DNA of 64,000 nucleotides, taken from the sequence record MH051915. One strand, written 5' to 3'. A model generated the notes under the pieces. The model ran no database searches, was not told the origin of the DNA, and worked only from the letters and a program-made list of their open reading frames with translations. This stretch comes from Enterobacteria phage vB_EcoM_IME339. Positions 2,581 to 46,180 of the stretch are shown one piece after another. A program made the position numbers and the translations under genes. Each line of letters begins with the position of its first letter. Within the stretch, counting starts at the first letter, position 1.

Positions 2581-3390
2581 TTAGAAACGAGATGCGACTT
2601 TCGCATATACACTTACAATATCTTCTGCACCAGGTGCAGTTTTATCTTCTACAGCTTCAGTGACGAAATTCAGTCCGGCTGCTTCAGTATCAGGAGTATT
2701 TATACCCTCAGTAATAGTGCTTTCATCTTTATTAGACTTCTTCACCATTTCTACGATGGCACTCAATTTACTTGAGAATTCATCTGAATAATCCATACCT
2801 TCGACCAGAGCAGAGACTTTTTCTTTTTGAGACTCAGTCAGATCTTTAGTACTTTCGCTCAATGCCACTTCACGCTGCACATAATTGATATATGCGTCAC
2901 GCTTATTGAGTTCTTCGAACAGACGAGCTGATTCTTCTTTATGTTCTTGCAGCTCTTCTTCCATTTCAGCTACAACATCAACTGATTCTTCTGGAACAAC
3001 AACGTTGTGTTCAACAAAGAGCTCTTTTAATCCACCAAGCATGGATTCAAACAGTTCGGCTTTGATGCCTTTATCAACTGCTAATTTATTTTCGGCGAGC
3101 CATTCTTTCGCAAGATGGTCGATGAATTTAGAAGCTTGCTCAGCGATTTTCTTCTCAGCTTTTTCTTCGGCTTCTTCTTTATTTTTTTCTACTTCTTCTT
3201 CTGCTTTTTCAGCAATTTTAGCGATATGAGATTCAGCTAATTTAACGGCGTGCTGCTTGACGGTAGCTTCGAATACAGTGCCGAAAGTTTCTTTTGCTTC
3301 CGGAGAAATATTAACTGATTCGAAAATACTATCAAGAGCAACGGAAGCATCAATTTTTTGCGCTTCAGCAATCAGTTGTTCTTTAAGCAT
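2581..3390 (-). CDS. 22: Prohead core scaffold protein gp22
   Basis: 269 aa, highly acidic coiled-coil, immediately upstream of gene 23 in T4 order. Confidence 0.9.
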   Translation of the reverse strand: MLKEQLIAEAQKIDASVALDSIFESVNISPEAKETFGTVFEATVKQHAVKLAESHIAKIAEKAEEEVEKNKEEAEEKAEKKIAEQASKFIDHLAKEWLAENKLAVDKGIKAELFESMLGGLKELFVEHNVVVPEESVDVVAEMEEELQEHKEESARLFEELNKRDAYINYVQREVALSESTKDLTESQKEKVSALVEGMDYSDEFSSKLSAIVEMVKKSNKDESTITEGINTPDTEAAGLNFVTEAVEDKTAPGAEDIVSVYAKVASRF

Positions 3391-3420
3391 TTTGTAGTCC
3401 TGTTGTTTAGATAATAATAT

Positions 3421-4059
3421 TTATAACGCTTTTTTCATGGCCTCTGCGAGAGCCATATAGGCGTCATCGGCACTTGTATCGGCTTCCGCCGTCTGTGATT
3501 CGGTAATTTCCTTAGGAGTTACCCATGCATCTGGAGCACTTGGACCCCATACTGCATCAACACCTACAGTTAATTTAAATCCTTCGTTTACGATACGATA
3601 ACCTTTATTTGTGTCAGTCAATGAACCTAATCCACGAGAAGAAACTCCTGGAATCCATCCGGCACGAATATTAGCTGCTAATTTATCTCCAGGACCATGG
3701 TCACCTTCAATAACACGAGCTCGTCCGTATACGTCATTTCCTTTCCACCACATATCTTCTATAATGATAGCGGCTTGCATCGGGTCAACATTAGCGCGTG
3801 GAGGATGATTTAATTCTCCGAGAGCTTGTTTAGTTAAAACTTGCTCATTGATATAGTCTTTTACCGCTTTTTCTAATATGCGTTTTGGATAAAGACGTTT
3901 ATTTCTATTGACGACTTCCGCTTGCATGAATATTCCTTCGATGTATAAACCAGGTTTTAAACCTAGGTCTTTTCCATCATGAGATTCAAGCATTGGCACG
4001 CCATCAATAATTTCGCCAGGTTGACCCCAAGTTTCAATTAGTAATTGGGGTTCATTCAT
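3421..4059 (-). CDS. 21: Prohead core protease gp21
   Basis: 212 aa; position between 68 and 22; length matches T4 gp21. Confidence 0.9.
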   Translation of the reverse strand: MNEPQLLIETWGQPGEIIDGVPMLESHDGKDLGLKPGLYIEGIFMQAEVVNRNKRLYPKRILEKAVKDYINEQVLTKQALGELNHPPRANVDPMQAAIIIEDMWWKGNDVYGRARVIEGDHGPGDKLAANIRAGWIPGVSSRGLGSLTDTNKGYRIVNEGFKLTVGVDAVWGPSAPDAWVTPKEITESQTAEADTSADDAYMALAEAMKKAL

Positions 4060-32276: not shown

Positions 32277-33016
<740 letters not shown>

Positions 33017-33045
33017 ATCTCATCAAAATTAATTAGGAAAATAAA

Positions 33046-33333
33046 ATGAAAACTTTCAAAGAATTTACTACAAAAACTACCCCGGTTTCTACTATTACTG
33101 AAGCTACTCTTACTTCTGAAGTTATTAAAGCAAATAAAGGACGAGAAGGTAAACCAATGATTAGTCTGGTTGATGGCGAAGAAATCAAAGGTACTGTTTA
33201 CCTAGGTGATGGGTGGTCTGCTAAAAAGGATGGTGCTACAATCATTATCTCTCCTGCTGAAGAAACTGCGTTGTTTAAAGCTAAACACATTTCTGCGGCA
33301 CATCTCAAGATTATTGCTAAAAATCTTTTGTAA
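33046..33333 (+). CDS. ipI: Internal protein I (IPI; capsid-packaged GmrSD inhibitor)
   Basis: 95 aa; N-terminal capsid targeting sequence MKTFKEFTT...ITE|A; early promoter upstream. Confidence 0.85.
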   Translation: MKTFKEFTTKTTPVSTITEATLTSEVIKANKGREGKPMISLVDGEEIKGTVYLGDGWSAKKDGATIIISPAEETALFKAKHISAAHLKIIAKNLL

Positions 33334-33336
33334 TAA

Positions 33337-33382
33337 ATATTTCACAAAGTTGTTTACATAGGGTTTTAGTTGTGATACTATT
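33337..33382 (+). promoter_or_regulatory. T4 early promoter
   Basis: GTTTAC -35 and TGTGATACTAT extended -10. Confidence 0.6.
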
Positions 33383-33409
33383 ACCCTATCAACTACCGAG
33401 GAGAATAAA

Positions 33410-33595
33410 ATGAAACGTTGTGAATTAATTAGAAATGTTGCTATTGCAATTTCTGCTTCTGCTTTTAGTTTTTCAATGTTTGTTGGATTTATATGTGGAT
33501 TATTAACTACAGCAGAAAATGTGTTTTCACTTGTAGTAGCATTTTTAATTGGTTTAATTGCTATCGTTATGGATAAAATTTCTAAAGGTGAATAG
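33410..33595 (+). CDS. Small hydrophobic membrane protein (hypothetical)
   Basis: 61 aa, two predicted transmembrane helices; early promoter 33337-33382 and AGGAG RBS upstream. Confidence 0.5.
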   Translation: MKRCELIRNVAIAISASAFSFSMFVGFICGLLTTAENVFSLVVAFLIGLIAIVMDKISKGE

Positions 33596-33596
33596 A

Positions 33597-33980
33597 ATGT
33601 ATAAAGTGTATGCGGATTATCAGGCTAATCCATCTGAAAAGCCAGGTTGTCAAATTGGATGGGCTCATGATACTTTGCTTGAAGCAGTAGATGCTGCTCA
33701 AAAATTAGGATATAAATATGTAGAGATTGTTCAACTACCATCAGGAAAAGTTATTACTCTTGAAGAGTTCAATAATATTAAACCAAACTTTTTACTTTTT
33801 GCAGGTGATAATTATTATCCTCGCGGTGGATATGCTGATTTAATCGCGAAAGCCGCTACCGAAGATGAACTCCGTGATATTATCAAAGAAAATGAAAACA
33901 AACCGATGTATGGTTCTAATCGCTTTGATTGGTGGCAAATCGTAAATGCCCATACTCATACTATTGTTGATGAAGGTTGA
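33597..33980 (+). CDS. Hypothetical protein
   Basis: Track start 33558 is TTG; moved to ATG 33597 (MYKVYADYQ) with AAAGGTG RBS. Confidence 0.6.
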   Translation: MYKVYADYQANPSEKPGCQIGWAHDTLLEAVDAAQKLGYKYVEIVQLPSGKVITLEEFNNIKPNFLLFAGDNYYPRGGYADLIAKAATEDELRDIIKENENKPMYGSNRFDWWQIVNAHTHTIVDEG

Positions 33981-33982
33981 TA

Positions 33983-34270
33983 ATGATTCTTTACGCGAAA
34001 GTATCATCCATTGAAAATGGATATAAATATGATCAAGAAGCAGCTAAATCCTTGATTGATGATTATGGCATTTTAACATATTTTGAAGTTGAAAAGGTTT
34101 ACATTGACCGTTCATCTTCTCAGGTTAAATTAGTAAAGGAAGACCGTAAATTTAACACAGTTAACTTTGATTTCTTTATTGAAACAGAAAAAGGTCCTCT
34201 TGAATATGATATTTTCAAGAATCCTTTGGGTCTTGAATGCATCGTAAATATGTATCACCATAAATGGTAA
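33983..34270 (+). CDS. Hypothetical protein
   Basis: Track start 33977 is TTG; moved to ATG 33983 with GAAGG RBS; 95 aa. Confidence 0.55.
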   Translation: MILYAKVSSIENGYKYDQEAAKSLIDDYGILTYFEVEKVYIDRSSSQVKLVKEDRKFNTVNFDFFIETEKGPLEYDIFKNPLGLECIVNMYHHKW

Positions 34271-34367
34271 ATATGCTTTAAGAATTATTTGTTATTATTA
34301 ACTCATACCGCACTGATTAATACCCTCTATCACCAAGGGCTCTTATTTGAGAGCCTTTGTTAATAAT

Positions 34368-34440
34368 TGGGAATTAGCCAAGTTGGTAAGGCACTGGATT
34401 TTGATTCCAGGATGCAAAGGTTCGAGTCCTTTATTCCCAG
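34368..34440 (+). tRNA. tRNA-Gln (anticodon UUG)
   Basis: Hand-folded cloverleaf: acceptor TGGGAAT/ATTCCCA, anticodon loop TTTTGAT, T-loop GGTTCGAGTCC; no encoded CCA. Confidence 0.85.
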
Positions 34441-34441
34441 C

Positions 34442-34528
34442 GCGAGAATGGTCAAATTGGTAAAGGCACAGCACTTAAAATGCTGCGGAATGATTTCCTT
34501 GTGGGTTCGAGTCCCACTTCTCGCACCA
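34442..34528 (+). tRNA. tRNA-Leu (anticodon UAA)
   Basis: Acceptor GCGAGAA/TTCTCGC, anticodon loop CTTAAAA, long variable arm, encoded CCA. Confidence 0.85.
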
Positions 34529-34533
34529 AATTT

Positions 34534-34607
<74 letters not shown>

Positions 34608-34617
34608 ATTTAATTTA

Positions 34618-34691
34618 CTCCGTGTAGCTCAGTTTGGTAGAGCGCCTGATTTGGGATCAGGAGGTCCAAGGTTCAAATCCTTGTATGGAGA
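34618..34691 (+). tRNA. tRNA-Pro (anticodon UGG)
   Basis: Anticodon loop TTTGGGA, T-arm CAAGG-TTCAAAT-CCTTG; acceptor stem has two G-U pairs, so boundaries are +/-2 nt. Confidence 0.75.
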
Positions 34692-34693
34692 CT

Positions 34694-34783
34694 GGAGGCG
34701 TGGCAGAGTGGTTTAATGCACCGGTCTTGAAAACCGGCAGTCGCTCCGGCGACTCATAGGTTCAAATCCTATCGCCTCCGCCA
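34694..34783 (+). tRNA. tRNA-Ser (anticodon UGA)
   Basis: Acceptor GGAGGCG/CGCCTCC, anticodon loop CTTGAAA, long variable arm, encoded CCA. Confidence 0.85.
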
Positions 34784-34788
34784 GTTTT

Positions 34789-34864
34789 GCTGATTTAGCT
34801 CAGTAGGTAGAGCAACTCACTTGTAATGAGAAGGTCGGCGGTTCGATTCCGTCAATCAGCACCA
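34789..34864 (+). tRNA. tRNA-Thr (anticodon UGU)
   Basis: Acceptor GCTGATT/AATCAGC, anticodon loop CTTGTAA, encoded CCA. Confidence 0.85.
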
Positions 34865-34865
34865 A

Positions 34866-34940
34866 GGCCCTGTAGCTGGAAGGTTCAAGCAAGCGACTCA
34901 TAATCGCCAGATGGTGGTTCAATTCCACCCAGGGCCACCA
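34866..34940 (+). tRNA. tRNA-Ile (anticodon CAU, presumably lysidine-modified to read AUA)
   Basis: Acceptor GGCCCTG/CAGGGCC, anticodon loop CTCATAA, encoded CCA; T4 tRNA-Ile has a CAU anticodon. Confidence 0.8.
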
Positions 34941-34953
34941 AATTAAGAATTAA

Positions 34954-35040
34954 GGGGAGTTATCCCGTAGAGGTAGCGGTGTGGACTGTAAATTCATTGT
35001 CATTGCGACTCGGGTGGTTCGACTCCCATCGGTCCCCCCC
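34954..35040 (+). ncRNA. Candidate small structured RNA between tRNA-Ile and tRNA-Arg (possibly stable-RNA species 1/2-like or a degenerate tRNA)
   Basis: GGGGAGT at the 5' end can pair with ACTCCC near the 3' end; contains GGTTCGACTCC T-loop-like motif and a C7 run; no canonical cloverleaf could be folded by hand. Confidence 0.25.
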
Positions 35041-35045
35041 AATTA

Positions 35046-35121
35046 CGGGGCATAGCTCAGAAGGAAGAGCAAGGACCTTCTAAGTCCTAGGTCGTAGGTT
35101 CGATCCCTACTGCCTCGACCA
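35046..35121 (+). tRNA. tRNA-Arg (anticodon UCU)
   Basis: Acceptor CGGGGCA/TGCCTCG (one G-U), anticodon loop CTTCTAA, T-arm GTAGG-TTCGATC-CCTAC, encoded CCA. Confidence 0.8.
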
Positions 35122-35137
35122 ATTAAGTGAGGAAAAT

Positions 35138-35488
35138 ATGAAAGGTAATGTTTATTTAGTAGTTCATGATTTAACATTTTATTTTAATCACAATGACACT
35201 GTTATTTCTGAACGTGTAATTAATTTGCTTTATCAACATGCGGATTATGTTTATGTCGAAAACGAATATGGTCATTGGCAATTTCTCAAAAATCGTTCAT
35301 TTGGCTTAGATGGTTACGAATACTTTGAACGTAAAGACCTTTTAGATAAAATTTCGTTATCTACGCAATATCAAAATCACAAGTCTTTACACAAATGCCG
35401 ACTAATTCGAAATGCTGAATCTGCGTATGAAGCAATTGATTTATGGCGTAAACGCCGTGAACAGATTGATGCTTTAAAAGAATATTAA
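35138..35488 (+). CDS. Hypothetical protein
   Basis: 116 aa ORF immediately after tRNA-Arg with GAGGAAAATATG RBS. Confidence 0.6.
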   Translation: MKGNVYLVVHDLTFYFNHNDTVISERVINLLYQHADYVYVENEYGHWQFLKNRSFGLDGYEYFERKDLLDKISLSTQYQNHKSLHKCRLIRNAESAYEAIDLWRKRREQIDALKEY

Positions 35489-35827
35489 GAAACCGGGTCG
35501 CTACCGGTAAGTCGTCGGACTGATGTTCCCTGGGTAAGGACTGGCATTAACAAATCTTTACGATCTGTTAATGTCCCCTTACATCACAGCAGAAACGGCG
35601 CACAGAATTATCGATTCGAGGAAATATCTTTGCCGTAAGCCGAGTAGCGTTTTTGACGGAACGTTCGGATATGGTCGAGATATGGCCTTTTAAAAATATT
35701 GAGTAGCGTCAACTGCTTAATAACCGGGTTCGAATCCCGGCGTTTCGTACAAACACTTGCCTTAGCAGGTGGAACCCCGACAAGGTTGCCGCAAGGCTTA
35801 GCCCCGACCGAAAGGTTGGGGCTTTTT
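35489..35827 (+). ncRNA. ORF-free structured region; candidate non-coding RNA(s) ending in an intrinsic terminator
   Basis: No ORF of 60 aa or more on either strand; local hairpins (ACCGG-7nt-CCGGT at 35492-35508); canonical tRNA T-arm CCGGG-TTCGAAT-CCCGG at ~35724-35740; duplicated GAGTAGCGT motif; terminator 35801-35827. Confidence 0.3.
35801..35827 (+). terminator. Rho-independent terminator
   Basis: GCCCCGACC-GAAA-GGTTGGGGC stem-loop followed by TTTTT. Confidence 0.75.
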
Positions 35828-35829
35828 AG

Positions 35830-35837
35830 TATAAATA
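35830..35837 (+). promoter_or_regulatory. T4-type late promoter (TATAAATA) for the internal-protein-like gene
   Basis: Exact TATAAATA ~40 nt upstream of ATG 35878. Confidence 0.6.
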
Positions 35838-35877
35838 TAGTAGTATATTAAATCCACGAATTAAAACAGGAAATAAG

Positions 35878-36351
35878 ATGAAATCATATGCTCAATTTTT
35901 AAATGAAGCGGTGTTAAATGAAGCATCTAGCACCGAAATTCAAGCTGTCGCAAAAGCAGCCATTGCAGCGGGTAAATATTCCTATAAAGATGCTTCTGAC
36001 GAATCACGATTCCAATTTGCTCGCGACATGAAAGCAGAAGGATTTACGGGAAATGCAGTTAGTATGGCCTGGAAAAGTTTAGTTGCTACTGGCGCTGCTT
36101 TTGCAAAGGCTTCGGGTAAACCTGCTCCTAAAGCAGATCCTAAAGCTGCACAAGAAAAAAATATCGTTAAAGGAATTATCTCTAAATATGAAGCTATCCT
36201 TAAAGAGCTTTTAGTAATCAAAACCGAAGGCCAAAAGCTAGCCCGTGCTTATAGTTTCAAAGATAATCCGCATGTTCACTCTCTTGAGTATGTTGAAGAC
36301 ATCCAAAAAATTATTAAAGACCGCATTTGGTCTGCTAAACAAATCAAATAA
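35878..36351 (+). CDS. Internal-protein-like capsid-targeted protein (IPII/IPIII-type leader), function unknown
   Basis: 157 aa; N-terminus MKSYAQFLNE|A matches the T4 capsid targeting sequence and gp21 cleavage motif (L-x-E); Ala/Lys-rich; late promoter upstream; terminator downstream. Confidence 0.75.
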   Translation: MKSYAQFLNEAVLNEASSTEIQAVAKAAIAAGKYSYKDASDESRFQFARDMKAEGFTGNAVSMAWKSLVATGAAFAKASGKPAPKADPKAAQEKNIVKGIISKYEAILKELLVIKTEGQKLARAYSFKDNPHVHSLEYVEDIQKIIKDRIWSAKQIK

Positions 36352-36358
36352 CATTCTT

Positions 36359-36386
36359 AACCCCAGCCGAAAGGTTGGGGCTTTTT
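36359..36386 (+). terminator. Rho-independent terminator
   Basis: CCCCAGCC-GAAA-GGTTGGGG stem-loop plus TTTTT; near-duplicate of the terminator at 35801. Confidence 0.75.
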
Positions 36387-36504
36387 GGTATCTAGGCCTT
36401 TCTGGACCTCTCTAGTCATCATTTGGTTTATACCCTTTATAATATATTATCCTATCTTTTAATTGCCCCTCCCTGCCCTAGAATTCCCTAAAACTTTTTA
36501 AAAA

Positions 36505-36552
36505 ATTTTTCACAAAACGGTTTACATCTCTGTTCTTCCATGGTACTATACA
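36505..36552 (+). promoter_or_regulatory. T4 early promoter (-35 GTTTAC, extended -10 TGGTACTATAC) with AT-rich UP element
   Basis: Matches T-even early promoter consensus; block nearly identical to those at 51660 and 53105. Confidence 0.7.
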
Positions 36553-36592
36553 ACTATCAACTACTGATACAGAAAACAACTTGGAGAATGAA

Positions 36593-36856
36593 ATGGATAA
36601 TTACGGCGAACTGTTCAACTTCTTTATGAAATGCGTTTCAGAAGATTTCGGTCGTACAGTGAATGATATTAAAGTTATCGGTCCTGATCATCCGATGTTT
36701 GAAACTTACGCAGTAATGGGTAATGAAGATGGTCAGTGGTATACTGTAAAGGTTGTGATTAACATGTTTACAGCAGAAGGTTATGTTAAACTGTCTTCTA
36801 AAGTTTACCACGATAACGACGAAATCGCAGAAGAATATTTCAATAATATGAAATAA
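36593..36856 (+). CDS. Hypothetical protein
   Basis: Track start 36581 is TTG; moved to ATG 36593 (MDNYGELF) with GGAGA RBS; 87 aa. Confidence 0.55.
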   Translation: MDNYGELFNFFMKCVSEDFGRTVNDIKVIGPDHPMFETYAVMGNEDGQWYTVKVVINMFTAEGYVKLSSKVYHDNDEIAEEYFNNMK

Positions 36857-36911
36857 GTTTACACAGGCTCATGATTGAGATATTATGAGCCTGTAACTTG
36901 AGGAGAACATA

Positions 36912-37310
36912 ATGAATATTGAAGATAAAGAAATGCGAGAGTTATATAATTCATTAACACCCGAACAACAAAAAGCTGCCAAAGAATTAGAGAAAGCTCT
37001 TAGTTTAAGCTTGACAAAAACTGATTGGGCCGCCGTGTATGAAGAAAAAATGAGGTCTGAAAATGAAGCTATCGAGAGAAATGAATGGATTGTAAACACC
37101 AAGATTAGTTCTGATGGCTGCTCTGTTGAGGTGTCAGCTGTAGTTAAAGGTACTCATGGCGAAGAATCATGGGGCTGGCATAATGAGGCAAACAAATATA
37201 TTGTTCTCTCAACGTCAAAAACTTATGGTCAAAAGGTTCCTGTATCCAAAGCTATTATTAAGCAAGCTCAATGGGAAGCCAATGAAATCTGTCTCGCAAA
37301 AATGAAATAA
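36912..37310 (+). CDS. Hypothetical protein
   Basis: 132 aa; GAGGAGAACATAATG RBS. Confidence 0.55.
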   Translation: MNIEDKEMRELYNSLTPEQQKAAKELEKALSLSLTKTDWAAVYEEKMRSENEAIERNEWIVNTKISSDGCSVEVSAVVKGTHGEESWGWHNEANKYIVLSTSKTYGQKVPVSKAIIKQAQWEANEICLAKMK

Positions 37311-37384
37311 CATGTTTACATTTCTCAAATAACAGGATATAATTCTACACGGATTTTAAATCTTAATCAACCTAAGGAAATATT

Positions 37385-37978
37385 ATGAACACACTGAAGA
37401 AAATTGTTGAGTTTATTCGCACTAAACTTGGTTCTGCTATGGCTAAAAATCTATCTGTCGAAGAACAGTATACTGCTGCAGCAGCAAAACTACTTGATAA
37501 AATTAAAGATCTAAAAACTGCTTCTGTTAAATCTATTAATGAAGAAAAACGTATTCGTGAACTTATTGTCGAAAAGAATCGACAGGCTGAATCAAAAGAG
37601 CGTGAAATTCGTAAACTTCTTTCCGAAGGTCAAGATGTAACAATGCACGCTAAACTCGGCTTGCTATATCGTCGAACGGCTGAGCAGTTGACTACTAAGG
37701 CTGACGGTTATGCTGAAATGCGAATTGAAATCGCTAAGAAAGTAGTTGAGTTAGATGATGCTCGTCAAGAACTTGCAGTTAAATTGGAATATATCCGTGA
37801 AACTCGTGCAGCAAATGCCCTTGGAATTAGTACTGCAGATGATGTAGTTGAAATCGCAGCGCTGACTAAGGTTGATATTGAAGATACCCTTGCTCGAGTT
37901 GAAACCTTTAACGGTAATATTTCCGGGGTTGAAACTACCTCTGCCGATGTCCAGGAATATATTAATTCTCTGAAATAA
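37385..37978 (+). CDS. Coiled-coil protein with weak PspA/IM30-like character (hypothetical)
   Basis: 197 aa, heptad-rich; segments such as DTLARVETF resemble PspA by eye only; early promoter at ~37310-37345. Confidence 0.5.
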
Positions 37979-38019
37979 TGATAAGGGGCTTCGGCCCCTA
38001 TTACTTGGAGTAAATAGGA

Positions 38020-38625
38020 ATGAAAATGCAAAGTGATTTCAATTCAATGTTTGAAGAGTTCCAAAGACAGGTTGATGTTCCAGACCAATTACTAAATGCT
38101 CTTAAACGTATGGCAGAAGGACGTAATTATTATTGGGGGTCTTCATATGAAACTGATGAAAGTCTTTCTGGATTTTATAAAGGTAAAAAGTCTTTAATAC
38201 GTCCTGGAATACTTATTAAAAGTATTGAATCAATTCATTCATTGACATGTGATTTTGATGTTGAATTTACTGATTTCATTTCTCCTGAATGGACAGTTTG
38301 TTATTTAAATGACGATTATGATTATCTTGGCGTTTATAGTTTAAGTGACGCATGGTTTAAACGTAATTTACAAAAGTCAAATTTGTTCTATATTGATACT
38401 ACGGTAAAATTTCAGGGAAAGAAATATTTCTTTACTCTTATAGTTGATTCTGAAACAAAGCATGAAAATAAACGTATTCTTAGCAAAAAGAATATCTTAA
38501 CTATTGTTGATGATCTTTTTGATAAATTCGTGGAAAATCCTAATTTTGAAAGCGATTTATTATTAGAAAAATTTGTTAAGGAATGTAGAGAATATGTCAA
38601 AGCCATCACTATACCTTCCAAGTAA
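38020..38625 (+). CDS. Hypothetical protein
   Basis: 201 aa; hairpin terminator-like element upstream; C-terminus shares the FVKECR junction motif with the next three ORFs. Confidence 0.55.
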   Translation: MKMQSDFNSMFEEFQRQVDVPDQLLNALKRMAEGRNYYWGSSYETDESLSGFYKGKKSLIRPGILIKSIESIHSLTCDFDVEFTDFISPEWTVCYLNDDYDYLGVYSLSDAWFKRNLQKSNLFYIDTTVKFQGKKYFFTLIVDSETKHENKRILSKKNILTIVDDLFDKFVENPNFESDLLLEKFVKECREYVKAITIPSK

Positions 38626-38986
38626 ACCTGTGAAGTATGAATTAAAGCGCCAGCTAATTTCTACTGATGTATTAATAGGTCCTGTTATACTCATATCATT
38701 TGTAATTCTATTGATTATTGGAGGTGTTTTAGATGTTATGACTGATATTGATTCTGGCGAAATACTTGTGTTAATGCTAATTCTTCCATTAATAGTTCCA
38801 CTTTTATTAGTACCTGTAAATTGGATAGGATATTGGTATCAAGGAAGACATTATCGTAAACGTGTACGTGATTGGAAAGCACAGTGTAAAAAGATTAAAA
38901 AGGAACACCAGCTTAAACTTGTTGAGTATGAATTTAATGAAATTATGAAATTTGTTAAGGAATCACGATGCAAAAGCCAAAACTAA
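38594..38986 (+). CDS. Small membrane protein (hypothetical), paralogue family member
   Basis: Track start 38573 is TTG; moved to ATG 38594; two transmembrane helices then a basic tail; C-terminal FVKESR motif. Confidence 0.5.
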   Translation: MSKPSLYLPSKPVKYELKRQLISTDVLIGPVILISFVILLIIGGVLDVMTDIDSGEILVLMLILPLIVPLLLVPVNWIGYWYQGRHYRKRVRDWKAQCKKIKKEHQLKLVEYEFNEIMKFVKESRCKSQN

Positions 38987-39330
38987 ATAAAGTCAAATAT
39001 TCGTTCCCCGAGGCACTATTAATTCTTGCCGTGTCAGTATTTGCAGCTCTTGCTGGTAGTCTTATTGGATTGTTAATTGACTGTATTATTTTAAACATCG
39101 ATGGTTCAGCAATTATAACAGAGGTTTGGAGTGAACTTCGTTTTACTATAGCGATTACATTATTTTCATTCTTTGGTACCATGCTATATTTTCATTATGA
39201 TAATTTTAAAATAAATTGGCAAAGAAAAAAGGATTACAAAATACAATTAAAAGAATATAATAGCTACATGTCTTATATTGAAAATGAATCAATGAAAGAG
39301 TTTGTGAGTGATTGCAGGAAAATCAAATGA
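38968..39330 (+). CDS. Small membrane protein (hypothetical), paralogue family member
   Basis: 120 aa; transmembrane helices; C-terminal EFVSDCRKIK. Confidence 0.5.
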   Translation: MQKPKLNKVKYSFPEALLILAVSVFAALAGSLIGLLIDCIILNIDGSAIITEVWSELRFTIAITLFSFFGTMLYFHYDNFKINWQRKKDYKIQLKEYNSYMSYIENESMKEFVSDCRKIK

Positions 39331-39815
39331 TTTTAAAAACTCGCTGGTATGATTTAGATGACGGGGATGATGGCATTTCAGTTGATAGAGTTGACTGGAA
39401 TGGCTGTTCCGAAGATATGAAAAATTTGCTGATTAGGGAGTTTAGAATGGGATATCAACCAGTTAAGCCATCTACTGCAACAGATGATAAATTCGTGTGT
39501 ATTCATAATGGTCGCGCTAAATTAACGAACGCTGATTGGTTCACAGATAAGATTATGATTCTGTGGTATATTATTAGTTTTCCTGTGACATCATTTGTAT
39601 TTTGCTTCTTTGGAGAAAGTCCAGTAGGCAGAACGGAAGATTGGATTCTTTTAATTATACTTGTTAATATTTTTACAGCAGCAGTACTATCAGGAATATG
39701 GTGCGTGTTCATTGAAATGCCATGGCGGTTACGTAGGCAGCAAAAGATTTTTGATGAAAAGAAATATACTCAAAATTTAAATAATTTTATCACTGAATGC
39801 AGGAAATTAAAATGA
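39327..39815 (+). CDS. Small membrane protein (hypothetical), paralogue family member
   Basis: Track start 39312 is TTG; moved to ATG 39327 (ATGA overlap with upstream stop); transmembrane helices; C-terminal NFITECRKLK. Confidence 0.5.
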   Translation: MILKTRWYDLDDGDDGISVDRVDWNGCSEDMKNLLIREFRMGYQPVKPSTATDDKFVCIHNGRAKLTNADWFTDKIMILWYIISFPVTSFVFCFFGESPVGRTEDWILLIILVNIFTAAVLSGIWCVFIEMPWRLRRQQKIFDEKKYTQNLNNFITECRKLK

Positions 39816-40252
39816 AAACATTATCAGCTGGTATTATCTTTATGACAGAAGATAAAGATTTATTTATGGGACGAGTTACTGGTTCTCGTAAGCCTGGAAT
39901 GATGGCACATCGTTGGGATATTCCAAAGGGGCGTGTAGAAAGTTCTGATTTGAATGCACTGGAAGCTGCAAAAAGAGAATGTTTAGAAGAGACTGGCTTT
40001 AGTAATTATAATCCAGACCTTCTAGAAGACCTAGGTGTATTTAAATATTCTAGTAATAAAGACTTACAGTTGTTTTATTATACGATTCCAGTAGAGCATG
40101 AGATGTTTAGAAATTGCCATTGTGAGTCTTATTTTGAAAATAAAGATGGCGTTATGATTCCAGAGATGGATGCTTTTGCTCTTATTCCTCGTACTCAGTG
40201 GCAATATGTGATGGCTCCTTCACTTTACCGAATAATGAACAGCCTCTTTTAA
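39797..40252 (+). CDS. nudE: Nudix hydrolase NudE (e.1)
   Basis: 151 aa; Nudix box region GRVESSDLNALEAAKRECLEETGF; immediately upstream of e; alternative start ATG 39812. Confidence 0.85.
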   Translation: MQEIKMKTLSAGIIFMTEDKDLFMGRVTGSRKPGMMAHRWDIPKGRVESSDLNALEAAKRECLEETGFSNYNPDLLEDLGVFKYSSNKDLQLFYYTIPVEHEMFRNCHCESYFENKDGVMIPEMDAFALIPRTQWQYVMAPSLYRIMNSLF

Positions 40253-40818
<566 letters not shown>

Positions 40819-40842
40819 TTCACAGTTACTTGGAGGGATAAA

Positions 40843-41259
40843 ATGACTCGTATTAATTTGACTTTAGTATCTGAACTTGCTGATCAACATTTAATCGCAG
40901 AATACCGTGAACTGCCGCGTGTTTTTGGTATAGTTCGTAAACATGTTGCAAATGGTAAACGGGTTAAAGATTTTAAAATATCTTCCGAGTTTATTTTAGG
41001 TTCTGGTCATGTTACGTTCTTTTATGATAAGTTAGAATTTTTGCGAAAGCGTCAATCAGACATTATAACGGAATGCTTAAAACGTGGGTTTAGTATAAAA
41101 GATACTGAAGTTCCTGACATCAGCGATATTCCAGCAGAATGGAAAAATGATTATAATCCATGCAAATCAGCTATTAAGTTGAGTCAACAACGACTCGATG
41201 AAAAAATTTTAATGAAGCCACACTGGTATAAATACTACGGTAAAAATATTTACATTTAA
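40843..41259 (+). CDS. denV: Endonuclease V (pyrimidine dimer DNA glycosylase/AP lyase)
   Basis: 138 aa; [17 protein letters not shown]...YKYYGK matches T4 DenV. Confidence 0.93.
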
Positions 41260-41268
41260 AGGAAACAC

Positions 41269-41742
41269 ATGAAAACATATCAAGAATTTATCACTGAAGC
41301 AGCTATTAATTCTCAAATTATTGCTGAATCTTTTACTGATCTTTTGAAATTTAAAAAAGGTCAAAAAATCACTGCTGTATTGGATGATGGTACAGAAGTT
41401 GAGATGGATGTACAGGGATATAATTATGCAGTAGATGGAAAACTGTATAATAAATCTCACGCTAAATTTGATTCATTTGACGACTTTGTTAATACAGTTG
41501 AAGATGAAAAAACTCGTAGATCAATTTCAACTGGCGATGCTAAGGTTCTTATGGCGCACGGCCATGAACGTATCCGCGCCAAACAGAATAAAATGGGTGA
41601 AGATAATTTTGCATTAGTTGGTTATCAATCTGGTAAGCAAACTTATGGCTATCAGCGTACTGCTACCATGTATAACAAAAATGGTAAAATCGCTTTCGTG
41701 AATAGCAAAGGCTCTATTCAGTACGTCAAATCATTCAAATAA
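41269..41742 (+). CDS. Internal-protein-like capsid-targeted protein, function unknown
   Basis: 157 aa; N-terminus MKTYQEFITE|A is a near-consensus T4 capsid targeting sequence; sits after denV rather than between e and denV as T4 ipII/ipIII do. Confidence 0.75.
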   Translation: MKTYQEFITEAAINSQIIAESFTDLLKFKKGQKITAVLDDGTEVEMDVQGYNYAVDGKLYNKSHAKFDSFDDFVNTVEDEKTRRSISTGDAKVLMAHGHERIRAKQNKMGEDNFALVGYQSGKQTYGYQRTATMYNKNGKIAFVNSKGSIQYVKSFK

Positions 41743-41847
41743 GCAAATAAGAAATATGGGAACAAGCTGGACCTCATGATTCTATGAGGGATTCCCGCCA
41801 ACCTGTAATAAGGTCGAGCCTGAGTGCGGTAATGGGTAAATACAGAA

Positions 41848-42435
41848 ATGGACAATTCATGCGCCATGGAATGGCCCAAATTTAGAGAGAATAAAATGAG
41901 AACATTTTTAACTGGTCCTTATCTATCCCTGATGAATGCTTTTACACACCATTCTGATGCTAGAGTAGAAGAAATTTGTAAAAACGATTATATCCCACCA
42001 TTTGAAGACTTACTCAAACAGTATTGCACACTTCGACTAGATGGTGGACGTCAATCTGGTAAATCAACTGCTGTGACTAACTTTGCTGCTAATTGGCTGT
42101 ATGACGGTGGAACAGTTATTGTTCTTTCTAATACTTCAGCTTACGCTAAAATTTCTGCGGGCCACATTAAAAAAGAATTTTCGCGTTATTCTAATGATGA
42201 TATTCGATTCCGCTTATTTACTGATTCTGTGCGCAGTTTTATTGGCAATAAAGGAAGCAAGTTCAGGGGTTTATTGCTTTCGCGAATTTTGTATATAATT
42301 GATGAGCCTGTTAAAGCTCCCGATATGGATAAAATTTATGATATTCATATTGACACTGTACATTACTGTTGCAATAGCAAGTGTTGCATTGGTGGTATTA
42401 CTCGCCCGCAGTTTTTCGTAATTGGAATGCAATGA
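41848..42435 (+). CDS. Hypothetical protein (vs.8-like by position)
   Basis: 195 aa ORF; start uncertain (ATG 41848 or ATG 41896). Confidence 0.5.
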   Translation: MDNSCAMEWPKFRENKMRTFLTGPYLSLMNAFTHHSDARVEEICKNDYIPPFEDLLKQYCTLRLDGGRQSGKSTAVTNFAANWLYDGGTVIVLSNTSAYAKISAGHIKKEFSRYSNDDIRFRLFTDSVRSFIGNKGSKFRGLLLSRILYIIDEPVKAPDMDKIYDIHIDTVHYCCNSKCCIGGITRPQFFVIGMQ

Positions 42436-42761
42436 TGACAGATACGCAACTTTTCGAATATCTTTATTTTTCGCCAAAAACTATTAAAAATAAATTGGTG
42501 AATCATTTTGAAATTTTGGCAAATAACAACGTCTTGAGCGAATTTTATCCTAAGCAATACAAATTACAAAAAGGTGTATTCAAAGGATGCAGAGTTTTGT
42601 GTACTGCTCCTAATGCAAGATTAATGAATAAAATTCCATATTTTACCATGGAATTTATTGATGGACCTTTTAAAGGACTAATCACCCAAAGTTTAATGGC
42701 ATATGATTCTGAGCCATTTTTAATTAAAGAACAATCTTGGATAAATTTATTTTCTAATTGA
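42432..42761 (+). CDS. Hypothetical protein
   Basis: Track start 42381 is GTG; moved to ATG 42432 (MMTDTQ), overlapping the upstream stop. Confidence 0.5.
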
Positions 42762-42769
42762 GAGGTTAT

Positions 42770-43132
42770 ATGAAAGCATATCAAATTCTTGAAGGCACGC
42801 ATAAAGGTACTATTTATTTTGAAGATGGTATTCAAGCGCGAATTATTGTTTCTAAAACCTTTAAAGAGGACTCTTTTGTAGACCCAGAAATTTTCTATGG
42901 TTTGCATGCCCGTGAAATTGAAATTGAAACACAACCTACAGTTAAAATTGAAGGTGGTCAACACCTGAACGTTAACGTTCTGCGTCGTGAAACTCTGGAA
43001 GATGCAGTTAAGCATCCGGAAAAATATCCGCAGCTGACCATCCGTGTATCCGGTTATGCAGTTCGCTTTAACTCTCTGACTCCGGAACAGCAACGCGACG
43101 TTATTGCTCGTACCTTTACTGAGAGTTTGTAA
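42770..43132 (+). CDS. Autonomous glycyl radical cofactor (GrcA/YfiD-like)
   Basis: Track start 42758 is TTG; moved to ATG 42770; 120 aa; C-terminal ~58 aa ([59 protein letters not shown]) match E. coli GrcA as I recall it, with the glycyl radical signature RVSGY. Confidence 0.9.
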
Positions 43133-43353
43133 TGGCAAAGATAATTATTGAAGGTTCTGAAGATGTGTTAAATGCTTTCGCCGAATGGTTTAGTAATTCA
43201 GGCGAACAGCAATTTAATGAAGCGTGGAACATGGGTGATATTAGTGGAATTTATCCTACGACAGAAATTTCTGTTCAAGGATATGGAATTCATGAACCTA
43301 TTCGTTTAGTTGAATATGATTTATGTACTGGTGAGGAAGTCAAATATGATTGA
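43132..43353 (+). CDS. Hypothetical protein
   Basis: 73 aa; start overlaps upstream stop (TAATG). Confidence 0.5.
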   Translation: MAKIIIEGSEDVLNAFAEWFSNSGEQQFNEAWNMGDISGIYPTTEISVQGYGIHEPIRLVEYDLCTGEEVKYD

Positions 43354-43612
43354 AGATATTAAGGGTTATAAGCCACATACTGAAGAGAAAATCGGTAAAG
43401 TGAATGCTATCAAAGATGCTGAAGTTCGTTTAGGACTTATCTTTGATGCTTTATATGATGAATTCTGGGAAGCACTAGATAATTGTGAAGACTGTGAATT
43501 CGCGAAGAATTATGCTGAAAGCCTTGATCAGTTAACTATTGCTAAAACTAAACTCAAAGAAGCCAGTATGTGGGCTTGTCGTGCTGTGTTCCAACCAGAG
43601 GAAAAATATTAA
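43346..43612 (+). CDS. Hypothetical protein (vs.4/Acb2 candidate by position; unverified)
   Basis: Track start 43310 is TTG; moved to ATG 43346 with GAGGAAG RBS; 88 aa. Confidence 0.45.
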
Positions 43613-43890
43613 TGGCTCAATTAAGCGCAGGGTTTGGTTATGAGTATTATACTGCCCCTCGTCGTGTATCTGTCGCTCCTAAGAAAATTCAAAGTCTTGA
43701 TGACTTCCAAGAAGTAGTCCGTAAAGCTTTCCAGGACTACGCACGTTATCTTAAAGAAGATTCACAGGACTGTCTCGAAGAAGATGAAATTGCTTACTAT
43801 GAGCAGCGTCTTGAACAGCTTAAAAACCTACATGAGGTTCGTGCAGAAGTTACAAAGTCTATGAATAAATTGATTAGATTTAAAGAATAA
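43612..43890 (+). CDS. Hypothetical protein (vs.3-like by position)
   Basis: Track start moved to ATG 43612 (MAQLSAG), TAATG overlap; 92 aa. Confidence 0.45.
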
Positions 43891-43922
43891 CTGTTTACTT
43901 TTCCTCTTGACTGTGGTATAAT
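43890..43922 (+). promoter_or_regulatory. T4 early promoter for regB
   Basis: GTTTAC -35 and TGTGGTATAAT extended -10, ~30 nt upstream of the regB RBS. Confidence 0.7.
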
Positions 43923-43949
43923 TTTTCTATCAGTTAAGAGGAGAATAAC

Positions 43950-44411
43950 ATGACTATCAACACAGAAGTTTTTATCCGTCGAAATAAGCTCCGTCGTCAC
44001 TTTGAGTCGGAGTTTCGTCAAATTAACAATGAGATTCGTGAGGCATCAAAAGCAGCAGGGGTCTCATCGTTTCATCTAAAATATTCTCAACATCTTCTTG
44101 ATCGTGCAATTCAACGGGAGATTGATGAGACATATGTTTTTGAATTATTCCACAAAATAAAAGACCATGTTTTAGAAGTTAATGAATTCCTGAGTATGCC
44201 TCCACGCCCTGATATTGACGAAGATTTTATTGATGGTGTTGAATATCGTCCTGGGCGTTTAGAAATCACAGATGGAAATCTTTGGCTTGGATTTACAGTT
44301 TGTAAACCTAATGCGAAGTTCAAAGACCCGTCGCTTCAATGCAGGATGGCAATTATCAACAGTCGTCGTTTACCGGGAAAGGCTTCTAAGGCAGTAATTA
44401 AAACTCAATGA
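43950..44411 (+). CDS. regB: Sequence-specific endoribonuclease RegB
   Basis: 153 aa; MTINTEVFIRRNKLRRHFESEF N-terminus and length match T4 RegB. Confidence 0.85.
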   Translation: MTINTEVFIRRNKLRRHFESEFRQINNEIREASKAAGVSSFHLKYSQHLLDRAIQREIDETYVFELFHKIKDHVLEVNEFLSMPPRPDIDEDFIDGVEYRPGRLEITDGNLWLGFTVCKPNAKFKDPSLQCRMAIINSRRLPGKASKAVIKTQ

Positions 44412-44418
44412 GGTAAGC

Positions 44419-44964
44419 ATGAGAAAAGCACTACTCGCTGGTCTATTGGCCATTTCTATGATGGCACATAGCTCCGAGCATACTTTCAGTAATGTCCAAC
44501 TCGATAACATGCGTTACGCGTATCAATTCGGGGAACAATTTTCTAAGGATGGAAAATATAAAACACACAAAAATATCCACAAGAGCGGATTAGGCCATAT
44601 AATGGCTGCTATTTTATGGCAAGAAAGCTCTGCCGGAGTTAATTTAAAATCTAAACCAAAGCATCACGCTTATGGAATGTTCCAAAATTATTTGCCTACT
44701 ATGCGAGCGAGAGTTAAGGAACTTGGTTATAATATGACCGATGCTGAAATAAAAAGAATGTTGAATAAACGGTCCAATTCAGCTTCCTGGGCGTACATTG
44801 AACTTTCTTATTGGTTAAATATACATAAGGGCGATATAAGAAAGGCAATATCCTCTTATAATTCGGGATGGAATGTTAAAGCAGGTTCTAAATATGCTTC
44901 TGAAGTCCTAGAAAAGGCTAATTACCTTAAAAATAATAAACTTTTGGAAATAGTAAATGACTAA
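44419..44964 (+). CDS. Secreted protein, vs.1-like (possible lytic transglycosylase-like fold)
   Basis: 181 aa with N-terminal signal peptide MRKALLAGLLAISMMAHS; position between regB and vs. Confidence 0.55.
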   Translation: MRKALLAGLLAISMMAHSSEHTFSNVQLDNMRYAYQFGEQFSKDGKYKTHKNIHKSGLGHIMAAILWQESSAGVNLKSKPKHHAYGMFQNYLPTMRARVKELGYNMTDAEIKRMLNKRSNSASWAYIELSYWLNIHKGDIRKAISSYNSGWNVKAGSKYASEVLEKANYLKNNKLLEIVND

Positions 44965-45304
44965 AATTTTGGTTTTATGTATAGGATTAATTTCATTTTC
45001 TGCTTCTGCGTTAGCAAATACATCATATACTGAAATTAGAGAGTATGTAAATCGCACTGCGGCAGATTATTGTGGGAAAAATAAAGCATGCCAAGCTGAA
45101 TTTGCGCAGAAATTAATATATGCATATAAAGACGGAGAAAGAGATAAATCAAGCAGATACAAAAACGATACATTATTAAAACGATATGCTAAAAAGTGGA
45201 ATACCTTAGAATGTTCAGTTGCGGAGGAGAAAGATAAAGCCGCTTGTCATTCAATGGTTGACCGTTTGGTAGATTCTTATAATCGAGGATTGAGTACTAG
45301 ATGA
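44957..45304 (+). CDS. vs: Valyl-tRNA synthetase modifier Vs (by position and length)
   Basis: 115 aa with signal-like N-terminus; follows vs.1 as in T4. Confidence 0.55.
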   Translation: MTKILVLCIGLISFSASALANTSYTEIREYVNRTAADYCGKNKACQAEFAQKLIYAYKDGERDKSSRYKNDTLLKRYAKKWNTLECSVAEEKDKAACHSMVDRLVDSYNRGLSTR

Positions 45305-45768
45305 TTGTAAAATATATCAAGGGCGATATTGTCGCCCTTTTCGCTGAAGGTAAAAATATTGCGCATGGATGCAATTGTTTTCATACTATGGGTTCAGGCG
45401 TAGCGGGTCAATTAACCAAAGCTTTCCCTAAAATTTTGGAAGCTGATAAATTACAGACTGAATGGGGTGATGTAACTAAACTTGGTTCTTACTCAGTCTA
45501 TGAAAAATACTTTAGGACTCATAAAGCGTATTGCTTCAACCTTTATACTCAATTTCAACCAGGGCCAAATTTTGAGTATTCCGCTTTAATGAATTGTATG
45601 TTAGAATTAAATGAGTTTGGTGAAAATAAACTGATTAAACCTACAATCTATATGCCTAGGATTGGTGCAGGCATAGGTAAAGGGAACTGGGATATTATTG
45701 AGGGGATTTTAGATACATATTCCTCTAAATTAGAAATTGTGATTGTTGATTGGGAACCATTATTATGA
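45301..45768 (+). CDS. Macro-domain protein (putative ADP-ribose binding/hydrolase)
   Basis: 155 aa; N-terminal GDIVALFAEGKNIAHGCNCFHTMGSGVAGQL resembles the macro-domain diphosphate-binding motif. Confidence 0.6.
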   Translation: MIVKYIKGDIVALFAEGKNIAHGCNCFHTMGSGVAGQLTKAFPKILEADKLQTEWGDVTKLGSYSVYEKYFRTHKAYCFNLYTQFQPGPNFEYSALMNCMLELNEFGENKLIKPTIYMPRIGAGIGKGNWDIIEGILDTYSSKLEIVIVDWEPLL

Positions 45769-45977
45769 ATATACATTATCCACATCCATATGACCCAAAG
45801 AATAAGGCAGTAATTATTCGTCAATGGGAACGCATTTGCCGTACTAAATGCCCAATTAATAGTCCACATGACGTAGATAAAGACTACATTGGAACATTCG
45901 TTGAATATACCTTTATTGATAAGAAAGGTCGTAAACAGCATGTAGAAGAATACTGCTTAAAGGTTACATGGTTATGA
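45765..45977 (+). CDS. Hypothetical protein
   Basis: Track start 45750 is TTG; moved to ATG 45765 (ATGA overlap); 70 aa. Confidence 0.45.
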   Translation: MNIHYPHPYDPKNKAVIIRQWERICRTKCPINSPHDVDKDYIGTFVEYTFIDKKGRKQHVEEYCLKVTWL

Positions 45978-46180
45978 GCCAAACTAGTATTCTTAAAAAT
46001 GCCCATTGTGAAAAGTGTAAATGGCCAGTTGTTTTTGCTTTATGCAACGATGAAATGGCTTGTGATTTCGATTATTGGTGCTATTGTTCTAATAAAGGAT
46101 GCATCAATCATAAAGGTGAAGGATTTTATTCGGGATTTTATCCTTATCCAGATTTCGTTAAAGAAGGTAAACCGAAATGA
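45968..46180 (+). CDS. Small Cys-rich protein (possible zinc binding)
   Basis: 70 aa with CxxC...CxxxxC...C pattern. Confidence 0.5.
   Translation: MVMSQTSILKNAHCEKCKWPVVFALCNDEMACDFDYWCYCSNKGCINHKGEGFYSGFYPYPDFVKEGKPK

Follow-up and report, generated by a model that had tools for sequence, protein, structure and literature searches.

The window analysed here is a 64,000-nt stretch of Enterobacteria phage vB_EcoM_IME339 (MH051915). Within it, the intact coding sequence of ip4 (ipIV) occupies positions 41269..41742 on the plus strand and specifies 157 amino acids, leader included, from an ATG start to a stop codon at 41740..41742. The translation begins MKTYQEFITEAAINSQ and, followed over a longer N-terminal stretch, reads MKTYQEFITEAAINSQIIAESFTDLLKFKKGQK...VKSFK. 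The ATG lies 9 nt past the stop codon of denV, the gene for endonuclease V, which is present as a divergent allele (40843..41259, plus strand) whose product shares 107 of 138 residues with T4 DenV. Ahead of denV stands the lysozyme gene e (40289..40783; 159 of 164 residues identical to T4), and downstream of ip4 come homologues of T4 vs.8, vs.7, vs.6 and regB. The vs.6 counterpart (42758..43132, plus strand) encodes a homologue of the autonomous glycyl radical cofactor GrcA.

The region immediately downstream of ip4, corresponding to vs.8 (41743..42435, plus strand), contains a stop codon that interrupts the N-terminal 40 residues of the 219-aa vs.8 annotated in T4, and only a 179-aa form, at 41896..42435, is intact. 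Because this shorter form agrees with the annotation of phage BW-1 and with one alternative start given in X04567, the vs.8 start in the T4 reference is probably placed too far upstream. The vs.8 homologue (41896..42432, plus strand) falls in phrog_1488, a family with function unassigned; the terminase large subunit profile phrog_2 also matches it weakly at residues 45–148 (E 2.7e-6), a stretch that contains a P-loop-like GGRQSGKS. A structured RNA in the 153-nt spacer after ip4 was considered as a candidate and dropped, as the folding of the spacer does not surpass that of shuffled sequence (z = −0.11), and an Rfam scan of 40700..42100 gave a single chance-level match below threshold.

Elsewhere in the window there is a T4-type IPI gene (33046..33333, plus strand; 92 of 95 residues identical to T4 IPI) and an ORF at 35878..36351 (plus strand) with a leader-like N-terminus, MKSYAQFLNE/A, where the slash here and below marks the end of the leader or a potential cut. 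The latter encodes 157 residues, with a predicted mature pI of 9.5, and matches phrog_2280, described as ‘unknown function’. It is located downstream of the tRNA/rnaC region in sequence that T4 lacks, which in T4 coordinates falls between 70825 and 70859. IME339 has a complement of IPI, Ip4 and the 35878 ORF, without IPII or IPIII; a tblastn search of the window with the mature parts of IPII and IPIII finds neither at E ≤ 1.

The product of 41269..41742 is almost certainly Ip4 (IpIV), an alternative internal head protein of T-even phages. It matches PF24183/DUF7412 with 318.2 bits (cut-off 27), residues 1–157 lying on profile positions 1–158, and phrog_3155, ‘internal virion protein’, with E 1.1e-101 over positions 1–157 of 157. 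Because both matches run from end to end, ip4 is not a chance reading frame. Matches to the ip4 product are present in 469 of the 50,697 phage records searched by tblastn: approximately 305 of them at 95% identity or more, in Tequatrovirus phages including T2, K3, RB3, RB27 and RB51, and approximately 160 at 60–80% identity, in Klebsiella Jiaodavirus, Salmonella Gelderlandvirus and others. The T2 protein, named ipIV or ip4 in three T2 records (‘ipIV: IpIV internal head protein’), is 99.4% identical. UniProt Q38388, ‘Ip4 [Enterobacteria phage K3]’, which is the top match in the BFVD viral structure library, is 98% identical, and the RB51 protein ‘Ip4: internal virion protein’ 98.7%. Identity reaches 100% with Kha5h ‘ipIV: internal head protein 4’, with HY01_0115 and with the UniRef cluster ‘Internal head protein 4’, the last of these found on 109 contigs. 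Records already exist of the gene and its name, of its leader and of the variability of the locus, and ip4 is not a new gene. One T2 record, AP018813 (locus extract 3001..3474), labels ip4 ‘valyl tRNA synthetase modifier’ and gives several of its neighbours implausible names, an error of annotation transfer in the public record.

The Ip4 family as a whole consists of 14 clusters at 90% identity and three remote metagenomic groups, which are 34–36% identical in alignment (37–42% over the matched stretch). Conservation stands at 99% within Tequatrovirus and at 60–71% across genera, that is, among Tequatrovirus, Jiaodavirus, Gelderlandvirus and a Serratia phage. When 1.84 billion representatives were scanned exhaustively with HMMER, the mature part of Ip4 matched five sequences only, all phage-like in look and none annotated; no cellular homologue was detected.

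The first ten codons (41269..41298, plus strand; MKTYQEFITE) form a capsid targeting sequence with a predicted cut by gp21 after Glu10. T4 IPII and IPIII begin MKTYQEFIAEA, so that 10 of the first 11 residues are shared with Ip4 (MKTYQEFITE/A) and a single position differs; in the T4 record X04567, residues −10 to −1 of IpII and IpIII are annotated as a removed leader. Scanned with a regular expression in all six frames, the 64 kb contain the strict leader motif only once. Residues M1, K2, F7 and E10 are each conserved at 90% or more across the Ip4 family, and every homologue, even at 34% identity, retains an N-terminal leader that ends in Glu with a small residue behind it; two of the three distant homologues read MNF..FLNE/S. 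Codons 11–20 (41299..41328, plus strand; AAINSQIIAE) hold a second conserved motif, hydrophobic-x-Glu followed by Ser or Ala, with a possible second cut after Glu20: E20 with S or A behind it is found in nearly all homologues, among them two of the three at 34–36% identity. A motif scan for gp21-type sites (Leu/Ile-x-Glu plus a small residue) recovers ITE/A at residues 8–11, IAE/S at 18–21 and no others in Ip4. From these patterns we infer cleavage after Glu10, perhaps also after Glu20. Cut at either site, mature Ip4 would be a basic protein of 16.5 or 15.5 kDa with a pI of 9.14–9.28, to be compared with mature pI values of 9.0 for IPI*, 9.6 for IPII and 9.7 for IPIII.

Beyond the leader, blastp detects no significant similarity of Ip4 to T4 IPI, IPII or IPIII or to the product of the 35878 ORF. 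The alignments with IPIII and with Melville gp114 span the first 11–13 residues only, and those with IPI and IPII, although longer, also start at residue 1 and show 29–33% identity. An earlier note, written from the sequence of this stretch, had described a 157-aa ORF directly after denV that joins a near-perfect capsid targeting sequence to a mature part unrelated to the 35878 gene or to IPI, and each element of that description agrees with what we find. The note had also allowed for the protein being identical to T4 IPII or IPIII, which is not the case, the mature parts being unrelated. The homology searches and structure prediction that it proposed lead to the Ip4/DUF7412 family and to a predicted fold without an informative match.

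An AlphaFold model of Ip4, computed with the remote homologues added, has a mean pLDDT of 84 and a pTM of 0.78, with residues 21–157 mostly above 90. The model shows a mixed alpha/beta body preceded by a disordered leader of low confidence, residues 10–20 falling below a pLDDT of 50. Foldseek returns nothing better than E 0.1 from the PDB, a search of BFVD with the model returned K3 Ip4 itself and nothing else, and the structure of IPI was not among the matches in any of the fold searches. Approximately 50 positions are invariant among close homologues. Across 15 aligned sequences, the invariant polar residues are K58, N61, K62, N107, K108, Q120, Y128 and T131, and because no His, Asp or Glu is among them, we read the sequences as pointing to a binding protein more than to an enzyme.

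The interval from e to vs.8 is arranged differently in different phages. T4 has the order e–ipIII–ipII–denV–vs.8, the window e–denV–ip4–vs.8 and T2 e–ip4–vs.8, without denV. In Klebsiella phage vB_KpnM_311F the order is e–Ip4–ipII–ipIII, and in Salmonella phage Melville e is followed by Ip4 and then by another internal protein. A blastn comparison of 33000..46000 with T4 shows that the flanks of the e-to-vs.8 interval are 93–97% identical and that the interval itself has been replaced. The left breakpoint lies at about 40832–40839: collinear identity with T4 ends at 40832, inside the early-promoter/inverted-repeat element that precedes ipIII in T4. On the right, T4 homology restarts at 41754, equivalent to T4 64942, the end of T4 denV. 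There, a conserved stem-loop region (41758..41796, plus strand), with a 7-bp stem at 41772..41789, forms the right-hand boundary of the exchanged segment, and the same sequence is found 3′ of denV in T4 and 3′ of ip4 in T2. The T2 sequence aligns with the window except at 40833..41253, so that, compared with T2, the window carries an inserted denV cassette that separates the promoter element from the ip4 leader. The Ip4 proteins of T2, K3, RB51 and HY01 are the same protein as that of the window, 98–100% identical over 157 residues and with the same leader; T2 shares the downstream flank as well, and the neighbourhood alone sets it apart, ip4 following e directly without denV in T2 and standing behind a divergent denV and the early promoter element in the window.

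These alignments support cassette exchange as what would best explain the e-to-vs.8 arrangement. The earlier note had placed the T4 internal protein genes between e and denV, had seen that here e is followed directly by denV with the internal-protein-like gene after it, and had read this as cassette shuffling in a hyperplastic locus; the gene orders are as it gave them, and the replaced interval between nearly T4-identical flanks bears out the reading. Ip4 is encoded in one of two polymorphic internal-protein loci, and both the conserved leader and the flanking repeat elements are present there. Repoila et al., writing in EMBO J in 1994, reportedly described the polymorphism of two such loci together with the conserved leader. 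The denV gene has 78% nucleotide identity to T4 over 40839..41132, while the neighbouring genes have 93–97%, so denV is itself a swapped cassette. Searches spanning the gene junctions find denV–ip4 in at least 163 records and T4 ipII–denV in 74; the order in the window is commoner in the database than that of T4 itself. In 311F (locus extract 3001..4051), three leader-bearing genes follow e in tandem, encoding Ip4, IPII (95% identical to T4 IPII over the first 86 residues) and the start of an IPIII-like ORF. Since Ip4, IPII and IPIII occur there side by side, Ip4 is more than an allelic alternative to either of the other two.

The segment just upstream of the ip4 start (41241..41268, plus strand) overlaps the last codons of denV and carries a ribosome binding site, AAAGGAAAC, at 41258. 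The stretch 41241..41300 shares 93% identity with the leader and first 11 codons of T4 ipII, and 41254..41300 shares 91% with the leader and start of T4 ipIII; the ribosome binding site is the same in both T4 genes. Inside the 3′ end of denV, 42 nt upstream of the ip4 ATG, TATAAATA (41227..41234, plus strand) matches the T4 late promoter consensus perfectly and is a candidate late promoter of ip4. The same motif stands at −42 in phage BW-1. At the same codons T4 denV reads TACAAATA, which differs from it by one synonymous base. In pattern scans of IMG/VR, one contig joined the TAT version to the leader and no contig the TAC version, numbers too few to judge conservation. Two further copies of the motif are found just upstream of e, at 40255 and 40268.

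In the spacer between e and denV, an inverted repeat, GAATTGTGA...TCACAGTT, forms part of an early-promoter-like element (40788..40829, plus strand). Comparison of intergenic regions shows that the same element precedes ipIII in T4 and ip4 in T2. In X04567 the T4 counterpart is labelled inverted repeat A/A′ and marked as potentially terminating e; −10 regions for IpIII are also given there. The window retains this promoter/inverted-repeat element, but denV stands between it and ip4. A generic scan for sigma-70 promoters and terminators gave nothing above background.

Our main reading, to which we assign a probability of roughly 0.8, is that the gene encodes Ip4 and that this protein is packaged, processed and injected, its most likely role being to block an early host defence. 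During infection, the early promoter ahead of denV would supply the Ip4 precursor by read-through, as would the late promoters of e; the TATAAATA inside denV may contribute as well. Guided by its N-terminal leader, the precursor would enter the prohead scaffolding core, and the gp21 prohead protease would remove this leader after Glu10 and perhaps trim the protein to Glu20. The resulting basic protein of 15.5–16.5 kDa would stay with the packaged DNA, enter the host along with it and, most likely as a stoichiometric inhibitor, block a host defence operating at DNA entry. By analogy with Ip1, Ip2, Ip3 and Bas37_0260, the target may be a modification-dependent (type IV) restriction enzyme other than the GmrSD variants already tried. 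The T4 leader guides internal proteins into the prohead and reportedly suffices for the packaging of foreign proteins (PMC3012670). The T4 internal proteins then enter the host together with the DNA, and by that analogy Ip4 is probably packaged and injected.

The characterised internal proteins give some indication of what Ip4 might do after injection. T4 Ip1, Ip2 and Ip3 each block one distinct GmrSD subtype, and at least ten Ips have been reported in T4 relatives (PMC12373910, citing Repoila et al. 1994). Ip4 resembles T4 IPII and IPIII in occupying the e-to-vs.8 locus, in having a near-identical leader, ribosome binding site and targeting sequence and in being a small basic protein when mature. 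In contrast to ip4 in the window, the gene of each of the two has a promoter and inverted repeat of its own directly in front of it, and the mature parts are without detectable sequence similarity. The two also differ from Ip4 in having known targets, GmrSD-ECOR21 for IPII and GmrSD-ECOR17 for IPIII, which is required on ECOR17 (PMC9391042); T2, a native carrier of Ip4, is still restricted by both enzymes (PMC12373910). T4 IPI (as IPI*, the inhibitor of GmrSD of E. coli CT596) is likewise small and basic, and is itself packaged, processed and injected. Its leader, like that of Ip4, ends ITE/A, whereas its locus adjoins 57B and its mature sequence is unrelated. Bas37_0260, here compared by description only, is similar to Ip4 as an alternative internal protein recognised solely by its N-terminal leader, but it is located in the ipI locus. 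It blocks McrBC (bioRxiv 10.1101/2025.11.20.689424), and leader-bearing proteins can therefore target type IV enzymes other than GmrSD.

Expression of ip4–10 against further active GmrSD variants gave no reproducible inhibition, the ‘ip4’ construct being known by name alone (PMC12373910). Because T2 is restricted despite carrying Ip4 and ip4–10 gave no reproducible protection, the target of Ip4, if there is one, most likely lies outside the GmrSD variants tried. Analogy with the other leader-bearing proteins gives even odds that Ip4 is an anti-restriction inhibitor. We propose only tentatively the more specific version, in which the injected Ip4 would inhibit a defence outside the tried GmrSD subtypes, either another modification-dependent nuclease or a different immediate-early defence. 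Judged by its sequences, Ip4 is unusually conserved for a factor engaged in an arms race, and this speaks against such a role.

The same conservation, higher than a fast arms race predicts, would suit a protein that is packaged and injected without a specific host target and that serves mainly as a basic counter-ion or helps to pack DNA in the head, a part that other internal proteins could equally play. Such a role also fits the basic pI of mature Ip4, the contacts that internal-protein lysines make with DNA phosphates (T4 head review, PMC3012670) and the failure of ip4 to yield a target among the GmrSD variants. We consider it less likely than a defence inhibitor, and unlikely overall: a generic role does not need a well-ordered conserved fold with so many invariant positions among close homologues, and all four characterised proteins with such a leader have specific defence targets. 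Klebsiella phages, moreover, carry Ip4 alongside IPII and IPIII, which argues against simple interchangeability.

It is very improbable that Ip4 is not packaged at all and acts only inside the infected cell, its leader-like N-terminus being a relic of recombination. The 5′ 60 nt of the gene do resemble a portable recombination module common to ipII and ipIII, but the leader, including Glu10 and the small residue after it, is kept at 34–36% identity, beyond the reach of DNA-level recombination with T4 leaders, and the reported sufficiency of the T4 leader for packaging also tells against a relic. Concerning the virion itself, a ‘hypothetical protein’, named only in a figure, is among the five major bands of HY01 (PMC5201272); a literature search for virion mass spectrometry of Ip4, DUF7412 or internal head protein found nothing usable, as the proposal of a non-packaged protein would allow. 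The suggestion of a novel internal-protein cassette peculiar to IME339, a new product of shuffling, could draw on the absence of ip4 from T4 and on its position after denV, unlike T4, but it is refuted by (near-)identical copies in approximately 305 records, named Ip4 or IpIV in T2, K3 and RB51, and by a denV–ip4 junction that recurs in those 163 or more records.

If the tentative version, with a target outside the tried GmrSD subtypes, is true, the conservation of Ip4 would reflect not an arms race specific to strains but a target that is itself conserved and common to Escherichia, Shigella, Klebsiella and Salmonella. With matches in approximately 470 phage records, Ip4 is among the most widespread internal proteins of T-even phages, and the question of its target is a general one that is not specific to the window. 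Finding that target would fill one more cell in the phage–host matrix and could help to explain the host range of T2-like therapeutic phages.
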